A stretch of DNA of 62,533 nt from an uncultured Candidatus Saccharibacteria bacterium (GCA_964436165.1 CAYTBY010000003.1:1-62533), one strand, 5' to 3'. Shown: positions 23,052 through 61,592, numbered from the stretch's first letter. A program made the numbers and translations. Notes: a model not told the origin generated them from the letters alone.

Positions 23052-23189
23052 GCCCAGTAATACAACAAGCATATAACTCCCAGCCGACCGTAATTACCCT
23101 CAATCAGAATTCTCAATATAAGCACTGGGGTTAGCTATTGATTTACGCAGAGTCGTTATGGGAGGCCGATGCTTGTTGATATACTGGGC
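23052..23189 (+). ncRNA. Candidate structured ncRNA, copy A (138-nt rod-like hairpin)
   Basis: Long imperfect stem; homologous to 61453-61592 with compensatory changes; strand inferred only from G-U pairs. Confidence 0.6.
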
Positions 23190-37008: not shown

Positions 37009-37056
37009 CCCCGTTAGAAGTAGGCCATCCGAAGATGGCCGTAACTTCTAACGGGG
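37009..37056. repeat. CCCCGTTAGAAG...CTTCTAACGGGG palindromic element
   Basis: Same termini as the smpB insertion; contains the stop codon of the 37048 ORF. Confidence 0.8.
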
Positions 37057-38061
37057 AGCTACTTCCCGCCAGCGAGGGATTGCTCTTTGAGGACCGACGG
37101 TTTTAATTATTTCGCAATAACCGCCGTTGGGCGTTGAGGCATCATCGGCGACTCTAAGCGTAACCAGGTAAGAGCCCAGGACCGGAAATGTAATGATCGG
37201 ATTTTGAGGCGTAGCCGGAGGAGTTGTCGTGTCAATCGTCGCGGCCGGACTAACAAGCCAAGTCCATTGCCGGCTAAAGCTACCTAGAGCAAAAAATGTT
37301 CTGTCGGTAAATTGAGTCGGCACACCGGCGGCAGGATTACAAGGATTCCAGGTAAAATCATTTCCCGCCGGCGGATTGCAAGGTGGCTGATCATTAGGCG
37401 AAGTAGCTTTTCTGGGATCTGGATATTGGTGAATGGGAGTTCTCCAGTTATCCACTGACACGGCTGGATTAGATCCATTGATGTATGTCCCCATTCTAGT
37501 CCAAGCCGACCAGATATTGCCGCTGTTTCGAACCCGAGCCCAAGCCGTATAAAATGTATTCCAGATCATTTGGCAGTTATTTTGAGGAATGTTGTCCGGA
37601 TTACTGACGCTTTCCACAGAACAGTTAGGAGTGGCGGCAAAAAACGGATTACCGCTAGGAATCGAGATGCCGGTAGTATAGGCTTGCTGCCACTCCGGAT
37701 CTACAATAGCAACATTGGGATCAGCGGCTAAATCGTCATCGATCAAAACTTCATAACCATTAGCGTTAGTAGCGGAGGGATCAGTATAAACAGCTTGGAC
37801 GGTGGCATGAACACCGGCTGTACAATAATTGGAGTTAGTTACAGTTACCGTCGTATTTGATGCTGACGGTGACGGTAGAGAATCAACGAATTTTACAATA
37901 TAGCCGACATTGCCTTGGCCGACAATCGGTCCAACCGCGGCTCCGGCCCTAAAAATGTCGAAATTAAAATTAAAGAGAAATAAGAGAATAATCGCCAACA
38001 AAAATGTCGTCGTTAATCTGGGTGACAGTATTCCATTGTTTCCATTGTTGTTGACTTGCAT
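37048..38061 (-). CDS. Secreted/surface protein with a PKD-like C-terminal domain
   Basis: N-terminal hydrophobic segment; Pro/Thr/Cys-rich; GSYLVTLRVAD. Confidence 0.7.
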   Translation of the reverse strand: MQVNNNGNNGILSPRLTTTFLLAIILLFLFNFNFDIFRAGAAVGPIVGQGNVGYIVKFVDSLPSPSASNTTVTVTNSNYCTAGVHATVQAVYTDPSATNANGYEVLIDDDLAADPNVAIVDPEWQQAYTTGISIPSGNPFFAATPNCSVESVSNPDNIPQNNCQMIWNTFYTAWARVRNSGNIWSAWTRMGTYINGSNPAVSVDNWRTPIHQYPDPRKATSPNDQPPCNPPAGNDFTWNPCNPAAGVPTQFTDRTFFALGSFSRQWTWLVSPAATIDTTTPPATPQNPIITFPVLGSYLVTLRVADDASTPNGGYCEIIKTVGPQRAIPRWREVAPR

Positions 38062-47694: not shown

Positions 47695-47717
47695 TTATAG
47701 TGGTCAGACCACTATAA
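47695..47717. repeat. REP-like palindrome flanking the transposase
   Basis: TTATAGTGGTC-a-GACCACTATAA. Confidence 0.85.
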
Positions 47718-47720
47718 TAC

Positions 47721-48407
47721 TTATTCAAATTCCGCCTGCTTCCACTTCCCTGCCAAAATAATATCTCGCGAAAAAGATTTAAATTTTGCTGAAGTATCAA
47801 AAAAGTCTTTAAAAATTTCCTTTTCTATAACAGGAGAAATATTTCGCATACCAGAATAGTCGCCCAAACTCGAGAATGAGTAAGTATTGGCCCATTTCCA
47901 CGCATCCTCAAAATTTTTCTGTGCACCAATTAGTCCGTTTTTAGGATAAAGTTCGAAAACATTTTTAACCATTATATATACTGCAACGTAGCATAAATAT
48001 TCGTCGGTTTTAATTGTCTTTGACTTATACGCACCCTGAAACAAACTTCCTTTTTCTTTATATTTAAGATTTGCGTGTTCAGTCATACTCTGGCCAATTT
48101 TTTTCATAAACAAAGAAGTGCCGCCTTTGCGTATTTCTTTTAATAACAAGTGGATATGATTGGGCATTAATGTATAACATAAAATATTTACTAGTGGTTT
48201 TTGTTTGGGCCAATTATCGGGACGATAGAATAGGCCCTTACCTTTTGTTATAACTGACCAATTAAAATCAACGTGTTCATCGTTCATAAAAAATAGAATG
48301 CGCAAAAAACGCCACATGTCTGACTCGTCATGAACAATGTCTATGCCACGCGCACCCCTTTTAAGTACGTGCAGATAAGAACCTGTTGTGTATGGCTCAA
48401 TTCTCAT
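47721..48407 (-). mobile_element. HUH (Y1) transposase, RAYT/IS200-like
   Basis: YLHVLKRG, LMPNHIHL (HUH), GSLFQGAY, putative catalytic Tyr in AVYIMVKN, YSFSS. Confidence 0.88.
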
Positions 48408-48434: not shown

Positions 48435-48463
48435 ATCTTATAGTGGTCTAACCACTATAAGAT
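48435..48463. repeat. REP-like palindrome flanking the transposase
   Basis: ATCTTATAGTGGT-cta-ACCACTATAAGAT; contains the stop codon of the upstream hydrolase. Confidence 0.85.
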
Positions 48464-59852: not shown

Positions 59853-60044
59853 ATGCCTCAAGTTATTACAAATAAAAAAAGTGATATAACCATTACTGAA
59901 CTCATGAAAGAAATGAGAGAACTTAAGGTAAAACTTAACAAATTTATGGGGCTGATTCCGGAGGAAAGCATAAAAGAGTACAAAAATTCAGAGCAAATCA
60001 AAAAAGATTACCTTGCGGCGATCAAATCTCATCCCCCTCAGTAA
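59853..60044 (+). CDS. Putative antitoxin
   Basis: 63 aa; its stop overlaps the start of a RelE-like gene. Confidence 0.65.
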   Translation: MPQVITNKKSDITITELMKEMRELKVKLNKFMGLIPEESIKEYKNSEQIKKDYLAAIKSHPPQ

Positions 60045-60304
60045 TGACTATCTACAAAACGCCTATTTTCTTAAAACGATTCGAGAAACTCCCAAAAGAA
60101 GTACAAACACTATACAAAAGACAGGAGCTGCTTTTCCAAGAAAGTTGGCTTCACCCTTTAATTCATACTAAAAAATTAGATGAACTGCCGGGAGCTTTTT
60201 CTTTTAGAATTACCCGAGGATACCGAGTTCTTTTTTATTTTAGAAAAGAAACTGCCATTTTTTTCGGTATTGGTCATAGAAAGGATATCTATAAAAATCT
60301 ATGA
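60044..60304 (+). CDS. RelE/ParE-superfamily toxin
   Basis: HTKKL...FSFRITRGYRVLF...IGHRKDIY. Confidence 0.8.
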   Translation: MTIYKTPIFLKRFEKLPKEVQTLYKRQELLFQESWLHPLIHTKKLDELPGAFSFRITRGYRVLFYFRKETAIFFGIGHRKDIYKNL

Positions 60305-60819
60305 CCGAATACGCGACCAATTCCAAGGCGGGGTTTGATTATGAAATCCTTGAAACGATTGAGGCGGGAATTGTTTTGGAAGGACATGAGGTTAAAGCAA
60401 TAAAGACCGGCAAAGCATCTATTAAGGGGGCTTATGTAAAAATACTTCACCCCGTTAGAAGTCTCGCTCACGCCAAGGGCGCGAGTCCGAAGGACCTCGG
60501 CGAGGCTACTTCGAACGGGGTAAACGAGGAGGTATTTCTTATCGGCGCTACTATCTCTCCCTACCAGCCGATAAATACCCCCAAAGATTATGATCCCCAG
60601 AGATCAAGAAAATTATTATTATCAAAAAGAGAGATATCAAATCTTACTGGCACAGCTCAGACACAAGGAACAACCCTTATTCCCCTCAAATTTTACAATA
60701 AAAAGAGCCGAATAAAACTTCTCGTCGGTATCGCCCGAGGCAAGAAGAAATATGACAAAAGAGAAACAATCAAGAAAAAAGATGTTGCCCGCTCTAAACA
60801 GAGAGGAGTAGAACAATAA
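60301..60819 (+). CDS. smpB: SsrA-binding protein with a 25-aa palindrome-derived insertion
   Basis: EAGIVLEGHEVKAIK, RSRKLLL and RGKKKYDKRE motifs. Confidence 0.96.
   Translation: MTEYATNSKAGFDYEILETIEAGIVLEGHEVKAIKTGKASIKGAYVKILHPVRSLAHAKGASPKDLGEATSNGVNEEVFLIGATISPYQPINTPKDYDPQRSRKLLLSKREISNLTGTAQTQGTTLIPLKFYNKKSRIKLLVGIARGKKKYDKRETIKKKDVARSKQRGVEQ
60448..60522. repeat. In-frame 75-bp palindromic element in smpB
   Basis: ACCCCGTTAGAAGT...ACTTCGAACGGGGT. Confidence 0.85.
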
Positions 60820-61452: not shown

Positions 61453-61592
61453 ACCCCGTAATACAGCAAGGATTTAACTCCCGGCTGACTATAGTTTAAA
61501 CGGAGTTATACCTCATAATGGAAACTTAATATTTAAAACAGCGTTTTAAGGATAGTCGTTATGGGGAGCCTATCCTTGCTGATATACGGGGT
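61453..61592 (+). ncRNA. Candidate structured ncRNA, copy B (140-nt rod-like hairpin)
   Basis: Homologous to 23052-23189 with compensatory stem changes. Confidence 0.6.

Follow-up and report, generated by a model that had tools for sequence, protein, structure and literature searches.

The closest described parallel to the locus analyzed here is provided by the RPEs of Rickettsia, summarized as short palindromic repeats devoid of a transposase gene (Ogata et al., 2000, via PMC10969869). Many of their copies lie within the reading frames of proteins that are unrelated to one another and often essential, and are translated into an additional peptide (PMC10969869). RPE insertions appear compatible with the fold of the host protein (PMC10969869). 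Another relevant class is formed by bacterial MITEs (e.g., Correia/NEMIS, ERIC, RUP, and Nezha), for which occasional intragenic in-frame copies are also described (PMC10969869, PMC3184786, PMC2229807).

The window (i.e., the entire analyzed stretch of 62,533 nucleotides) originates from a tiny groundwater bacterium of the CPR/Patescibacteria with a 1.15-Mb genome (41% GC), and its smpB gene is interrupted by an in-frame segment of 75 bp. Our main interpretation, to which we assign a probability of about 80%, is that this segment represents one copy of a mobile DNA element, miniature and non-coding, that folds into a hairpin, and that it is a tolerated passenger in the gene of a working SmpB. 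The element would jump with a 4-bp target duplication, the unit and the duplication together amounting to 75 bp, so that the frame would never be shifted; it would be read in a stop-free frame as 25 mostly small or polar residues, converting a two-residue turn of the SmpB barrel into a long, probably disordered, loop. Outside the insert, SmpB is intact and subject to purifying selection; most likely the protein remains functional, with the insert as mere cargo.

Insertion site in smpB and the state of the SmpB protein

The smpB ORF (60301..60819, plus strand) encodes a protein of 172 aa, as compared to 146–148 aa in SmpB orthologues; it matches PF01668 (E = 3.6e-46) as well as SmpB chains in the PDB, and a homologue search with it yielded 7,866 homologues. 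The insertion (60448..60522, plus strand; 25 codons reading CAC CCC GTT ... GGG GTA), delimited against orthologues with an empty site, encodes HPVRSLAHAKGASPKDLGEATSNGV and interrupts SmpB between GAYVKIL and NEEVFLIG. A codon alignment with the insert-free genes P0005/L013, P0015/L065, and P0020/L064 contains a single clean 75-nt gap and no further indel, in full agreement with an earlier note on this DNA, according to which a 75-bp element splits AYVKIL|NEEVFL. The respective empty sites read GTT CTC|AAC GAA, ATT TTA|AAT GAG, and ATT TAC|AAC GAA, and the nearest insert-free relatives have KVL|NEE at the insertion point. An SmpB alignment, which that note had proposed as a check, revealed the canonical 10-residue stretch at the turn, free of any insert segment, in 113 of 119 close homologues, and the insertion is also absent from the representatives of species of the same genus (G001–G005). 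Directly upstream of smpB (59853–60304, plus strand) there are two small overlapping ORFs (63 and 86 aa) with no Pfam match at E up to 0.01; the product of the second one, ending in FSFRITRGYRVLFYFRKETAIFFGIGHRKDIYK, resembles a RelE/ParE-type toxin, and the two may constitute a toxin-antitoxin pair.

Palindromes can cause misassembly, and the insert might in this sense be an assembly or chimera artefact of the metagenomic bin. However, this insert recurs at an identical position in two other assemblies, independent of the present one (GCA_030697405.1 from NCBI and a contig of SRR22388100 from Logan), each with its own diverged flanks, and the frame and length of the segment are exact, which leaves a practically negligible probability for such an artefact. 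The segment is bordered by TTCA on the left (60446..60449, plus strand) and TAAA on the right (60521..60524, plus strand), an imperfect duplication that we interpret as two degenerate copies of a 4-bp target. Judging from the empty sites and from the 4-bp duplications of other family copies, this target was most likely TTAA, contained in CTT|AAC (Leu-Asn).

In alignments with PDB chains, residues 6–47 and 77–165 of the window SmpB correspond to residues 6–47 and 52–140 of the T. thermophilus protein, with the break located exactly at the insert, and residues 5–48 and 75–168 correspond to residues 10–54 and 56–148 of the A. aeolicus protein. The insertion site is a tight two-residue turn between two beta-strands, at the tip of a beta-hairpin on the protein surface, RDGE in E. 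coli (approximately residues 59–62, by our own alignment) and approximately residues 48–51 in T. thermophilus. An AlphaFold2 model with the 119-sequence alignment as input places residues 49–73 (pLDDT ~35) between strands 39–48 and 79–87; this model is poor (mean pLDDT 52.7) and was used solely for the strand-insert-strand order. Gly, Ser, Ala, Pro, and charged residues abound in the insert peptide, which is presumably translated; the predicted tryptic peptides for the insert and its junctions include DLGEATSNGVNEEVFLIGATISPYQPINTPK and SLAHAK.

The same turn holds other inserts of 9–10 aa in P0018 (L066), P0030 (L067), and P0058 (of the type KSPAFAKASSG, HDPASAKASAG, and NDPSSAKASEGKG), as well as an 8-aa insert, GPSIGSGRS, in G026/G032 (L058/L059), which belong to another family of the order. 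The inserts of the P0018/P0030/P0058 type resemble a ~30-nt hairpin repeat of this genome (‘SSFAKASED’), which is also present in SecA of G006 (HSSSAKASEDK). A separate peculiarity was observed in P0002, an SmpB of 205 aa from an ENA contig, which contains an internal tandem duplication of ~58 residues (YDPQRSRKLLLSKKEIS...ISPYQPANT repeated).

Among alternative interpretations, the insertion could have inactivated or crippled SmpB, with trans-translation being impaired and the gene turning into a pseudogene or another rescue route being used. A 25-aa loop could clash in the ribosomal A site: by Fe-BABE hydroxyl-radical probing, residue 52, located seven residues upstream of the insertion turn, is near 16S 519–532/1411 (530 loop) and 23S H69, i.e., near the decoding centre (PMC2175365), making a steric cost of the loop in the A site possible. 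The same probing lists no cleavage from residues near 59–61 (PMC2175365). The copy in the window has also acquired two stem mismatches and has thus been resident for some time. Nevertheless, the ORF is intact in all three insert-bearing lineages, the near-invariant residues of SmpB and its C-terminal tail are retained, a single tmRNA gene is present (ARAGORN; tag AKNNYSGALAFA), and other inserts are accommodated at this turn in no fewer than five additional lineages. The value of omega outside the insert is 0.04–0.06 (pS ~0.70), although, if the insertion is recent, it says little on the time elapsed since. Owing to the position of the insert in a turn, the permissive nature of this turn, purifying selection, and the tmRNA gene, tolerance is much likelier than a loss of trans-translation, and we consider a crippled SmpB improbable. 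The earlier note had envisaged either a tolerated loop or impaired trans-translation; the former is favored by the turn position, the intact ORF, omega, and the tmRNA gene, while nothing seen supports the latter. As far as can be predicted from sequence, the insert most likely forms a loop on the surface of SmpB that is tolerated by the protein, with its function retained.

The hairpin element and its order-wide family

The element proper is a 71-nt unit of the form YCCC...GGGR (60450..60520, plus strand), as defined by alignment of family copies. It starts with the left terminal inverted repeat CCCCGTTAGAAGT (60450..60462, plus strand), conserved across the order, and ends with the right terminal inverted repeat ACTTCGAACGGGG (60508..60520, plus strand), in which one mismatch (G for T) produces an A.G mispair in the outer stem. 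Over copies and genomes the termini, YCCCGTTAGAAGT ... ACTTCTAACGGGR, are 12–13 nt long and nearly invariant. They enclose a T-shaped interior (60463..60507, plus strand), which, based on fold and covariation, is a three-way junction comprised of one helix (60463–60467/60500–60504) and two hairpins (60469–60474/60478–60483, with one A.C mispair in the smpB copy, and 60486–60488/60492–60494), all on the plus strand. The predicted fold of the smpB element has an energy of −39.3 kcal/mol over 91 nt (z = −3.5). Upon addition of the 4-bp duplication to this unit (71 + 4 = 75) the reading frame is kept, and four of the six frames of the element consensus are stop-free. Thus, the 3n length is built in, a feature missed by the earlier note.

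A sister copy of 48 nt (37009..37056) has identical 13-nt termini, which form a perfect 13-nt pair, and a single inner hairpin in place of the three-way junction (z = −6.3). The matching termini and differing interiors of these two copies, as well as the palindrome-encoded, in-frame, 3n character of the smpB segment, had been pointed out previously from the sequence alone, and each of these observations holds. The right arm of the sister copy supplies the TAG stop (37048–37050) of a 337-aa ORF with no Pfam match (37048–38061, minus strand), and the element thus seems to have replaced the original end of this ORF.

A gapless alignment of 22 cores of 69 nt from 12 genomes (94% mean column identity) has 98.8% of cells paired, with 7 of 26 pairs altered on both sides. 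Compensatory changes occur in all four helices: in the outer stem, for instance, A-U is replaced by C-G, and in the first hairpin C-G gives way to U-A or A-U. The observed pairing was not matched by any of 500 shuffles, and slid controls yielded 26–46% pairing. Such covariation, together with a very stable fold (−35 to −44 kcal/mol) and with 93–99% identity of the inserts despite saturated synonymous sites (the same being seen at an RluA-type site in G026/G032), could point to a functional RNA element of the smpB mRNA, such as a translation pause, an autoregulatory device, or a target of RNase III or another nuclease, with the peptide as a by-product. Arguing against this interpretation, family copies occur in both orientations relative to genes, as well as in intergenic regions and at start and stop codons. 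The single-side mismatches, counted by eye in the alignment, are split between five of G.U type and five of A.C type, and this lack of strand bias suggests a constraint at the level of DNA rather than RNA. A search with the covariance models of Rfam 15, at gathering score and at permissive thresholds, over the window and ten genome copies yielded only chance-level matches (E up to 1–5). Moreover, the 113 of 119 SmpB genes without the insert indicate that the element is not a part of general smpB regulation. A role as an intrinsic terminator is not indicated either, since no T-run follows the smpB hairpin on its 3′ side, as read from the sequence. Overall, an RNA function appears quite improbable, and the conservation of pairing is attributed here to a DNA hairpin.

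The family, which escaped the earlier note, is large and order-wide, and its copies frequently form part of the translated sequence of essential genes. The 1.15-Mb genome contains at least 19 paired copies (38–137 nt). In 40 relatives, all of them members of this order, CCCGTTAGAAGT (a 12-mer, with one mismatch allowed) reaches 72 + 64 occurrences in a single genome, as compared to 0–6 occurrences per genome for a reversed control pattern; matches are found in 37 of 41 genomes, and those with more than ~6 are clearly above the reversed control. Hence the family is enriched in most of the 40 relatives, with a maximum of ~70 copies per genome. A perfect 4-bp direct repeat flanks 28 of 43 distinct copies, mostly of the T-N-N-A form (TCAA, TGAA, TCCA, TGGA, and TTGA), with TGCG and others also represented; such repeats are the hallmark of a transposition event in which the target is cut with a 4-bp stagger. 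The commonest form adds 25 codons; for a copy of 77 nt in this genome, the addition amounts to 81 bp. A microhomology between flanks and element ends was considered as a general targeting rule and rejected, the mean of 2.9 matches per 10 being equal to chance and the striking RluA-type case being a single site.

Several additional observations pertain to repeats in this and other genomes. A subfamily of 110–115 nt shares the same termini (C2:49755, C11:798, C15:6172, C16:2602, C18:4498, and C22:7286), with perfect 4-bp duplications in five of its six copies. The same termini were also encountered outside the order, in a ‘Deltaproteobacteria’ groundwater MAG (L078, JACQEJ010000121.1) and in CSMAG_2459 (L077), where a copy lies in frame in a membrane protein, as well as on a contig labelled viral (L079, IMG/VR UViG_3300009431_000021). 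A second repeat family of ~138 bp is represented in the window by two copies with 79% identity (23052–23189 and 61453–61592); it has inverted ends of ~31 nt (CCCNGTAATACARCAAG.AT.TAACTCCC ... GGGRGCC.AT.CTTGYTGATATACNGGG), a shared inner block AGTCGTTATGGG, and no Rfam match at gathering score.

A search with the SmpB insert peptide revealed in-frame, stop-free matches within long ORFs of many relatives, and eight in-gene matches were checked individually. They include an intein-containing GyrA of a relative, SecA from two genomes (with the insertion at a different position in each), a UvrD/PD-(D/E)XK helicase-nuclease, a GT4 glycosyltransferase, a DUF4012 protein, and a TPR membrane protein. 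An RluA-type pseudouridine synthase (L074, G026:C6:87500-90500) contains tandem copies of 71 nt and 137 nt, both in the translated frame and located at the conserved KPxGxxxHP motif, with the native sequence after the site (TCCCGTTAAT) being similar to the element’s own end; its congener G032 has only the first of these two copies. In the genome of the window, three copies lie in the translated frame, in SmpB, in a GT1 glycosyltransferase (contig C5, opposite orientation, peptide PIRSSLAEVPTGLAKSNLASETSNGM), and in a NeuB-cytidylyltransferase (NeuB-CTP_transf_3) fusion on contig C1. Other copies are located after terminators, and a copy on contig C7 provides the A of an ATG start.

The properties of these in-gene copies also bear on a possible removal of the element before or during translation, as a mini-intron or by translational bypass, which would leave a mature SmpB with a normal turn. 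A compact, stable structure would suit such a process, and some yeast mitochondria bypass GC-rich inserts of the hairpin type. On the other hand, all in-gene copies examined are of 3n length, including the duplication, and have a stop-free frame, neither of which would be needed if the element were removed. In addition, the potential take-off and landing codons do not match (CTT before and AAC after the insert), and no ribozyme or intron family matches the element. We therefore regard removal as highly improbable and adhere to the interpretation of a translated passenger.

Distribution of the SmpB insert and the search for a mover

In the protein database, the insert is found in only three 90%-identity SmpB clusters, those of the window, P0003 (a Candidatus Taylorbacteria MAG), and P0004 (a Logan contig). 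A junction-pattern scan of metagenome and genome collections yielded no further insert-bearing SmpB, its three matches being other genes with family copies; L055 of G005, seemingly an insert-bearing fragment similar to SmpB, was actually an unrelated membrane protein. The imperfect flanks TTCA...TAAA are common to all three SmpB copies and absent from other family copies, and the three inserts thus go back to one origin; P0004 additionally lacks 9 nt upstream. In an SmpB tree built with the insert removed, the window sequence groups with P0005 (support 96/85), P0004 with P0020 and the G005 representative (97/93), and P0003 with P0015 (91/78). None of the bootstrap trees unites the three insert bearers, and their monophyly is rejected by the AU test (p = 0.00018). 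This non-vertical distribution of the insert among SmpB genes is another feature that the earlier note did not capture.

The inserts are 93–99% identical, as compared to 73–79% identity of the host genes with saturated synonymous sites, and the shared nucleotides around the insert extend to at most ~12 nt upstream and ~9 nt downstream. A similar contrast was found at the RluA-type site of the congeners G026/G032, where the element is identical at 68 of 69 positions and the left flank at ~78%. Slow change of resident copies thus seems to be general, and near-identity alone is no proof of recent arrival. Our tentatively preferred explanation, held at somewhat less than even odds, is that the filled smpB allele has passed laterally between co-occurring species through short-patch recombination. 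Less likely, though possible, is an old insertion that gene conversion has kept uniform and that has repeatedly been lost seamlessly. It is unlikely that the three-lineage pattern is a tree error in a protein of 147 aa, and equally unlikely that something else accounts for it.

The combination of near-identical copies (93–99%) at saturated synonymous sites with private flanks in three non-sister SmpB lineages also forms the basis of a more radical proposal, which we regard as doubtful, namely that the family, rather than being a passive MITE, is a mobile hairpin, structure-specific and frame-neutral, whose movement or maintenance depends on an as yet unrecognised enzyme that Patescibacteria have in common. 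If true, this would imply a homing-like lateral spread of the filled allele or concerted evolution with repeated seamless excision.

Candidates for the enzyme that moves the family were sought in the genome of the window and in 41 genomes overall. The former contains no long element with the family ends; a 1.5-kb ‘autonomous’ candidate between half-sites on contig C14 was rejected for lack of a transposase-like ORF, the half-sites being evidently chance matches. DDE_Tnp_1 is present in 5 of 41 genomes, an IS1380-type transposase (NF033539) gave no match above cut-off in the 41 genomes, and a search for piggyBac-type transposases (PF13843) returned zero matches in the 41 genomes and zero in its controls alike. 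Y1_Tnp-like genes are present in 22 of 41 genomes, including five in this genome, and their presence is weakly correlated with the number of copies (Fisher p = 0.05, Spearman rho = 0.16). One of them (47721–48407, minus strand) encodes an IS200-like protein of 228 aa with the HUH motif NHIHLLL and has at either side one copy of a hairpin distinct from that of the family, TTATAGTGGTC.GACCACTATAA (47695–47717 and 48435–48463), which is an IS200/RAYT-like arrangement. A third copy of the latter hairpin is found on contig C9.

Implications and comparison with known element classes

The main implication of this analysis is that ultra-small CPR genomes hold a large family of 25-codon ‘frame-safe’ hairpins in essential genes (gyrA, secA, and smpB), paralleling what was thought to be a peculiarity of Rickettsia. 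The near-identity of the elements against a saturated divergence of their hosts, along with the non-vertical SmpB insert, makes the question of what moves or preserves them directly testable. From a practical perspective, the beta3-beta4 turn of SmpB evidently holds 8–25 extra residues in nature, which provides a hint for tagging and engineering, and annotators should be cautioned against calling such insert-bearing smpB genes broken. The window protein itself has the attributes of SmpB (the PF01668 match with E = 3.6e-46, conserved residues, the C-terminal tail, and a tmRNA gene in the genome), and its activity is predicted on these grounds.

With respect to MITEs, the family agrees with the accepted description in being non-coding, multi-copy, and 38–137 nt long, with terminal inverted repeats of 12–13 nt, target duplications (28 of 43 perfect), and filled as well as empty sites (the latter in SmpB of P0005, P0015, and P0020); a parent autonomous IS or transposase was not found in this genome and in the 41 genomes searched. 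In contrast to classical MITEs, its interiors are length-variable and co-varying, unlike deletion derivatives of one IS, and classical DDE transposases are nearly absent from the genomes that bear it. A likeness to REP/BIME elements is seen in the GC-rich hairpins kept by compensatory change and in the presence of Y1_Tnp-like genes, whereas the greater length of this family, its target duplications, and its often intragenic location set it apart from the REP/RAYT systems. To our knowledge, HUH/Y1 transposition makes no target duplications. Elements of the piggyBac superfamily and the IS1380 family produce a 4-bp duplication of the T..A type (TTAA) and have termini of the CCC...GGG type; the 4-bp T..A duplications and CCC...GGG ends of the present family resemble them and are taken as a lead only.

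A search of the literature library yielded no description of this family or its termini, and none of the relevant papers in it contains the element’s 11-mer. The smpB case as such is RPE-like and not a new principle. Judged from its structure and placement in genes, the element works like an RPE and has the structure of a MITE except for a known parent IS. As compared to the RPEs, the present family is alike in being palindromic and in frame in many unrelated protein genes, a likeness of behaviour. It differs in size (71 nt vs. ~100–150 nt for RPEs), in its CPR/Patescibacteria host, in the clear 4-bp duplications giving exactly 25 codons, and in the T-shaped three-way-junction interior with modular hairpins and termini conserved throughout the order.
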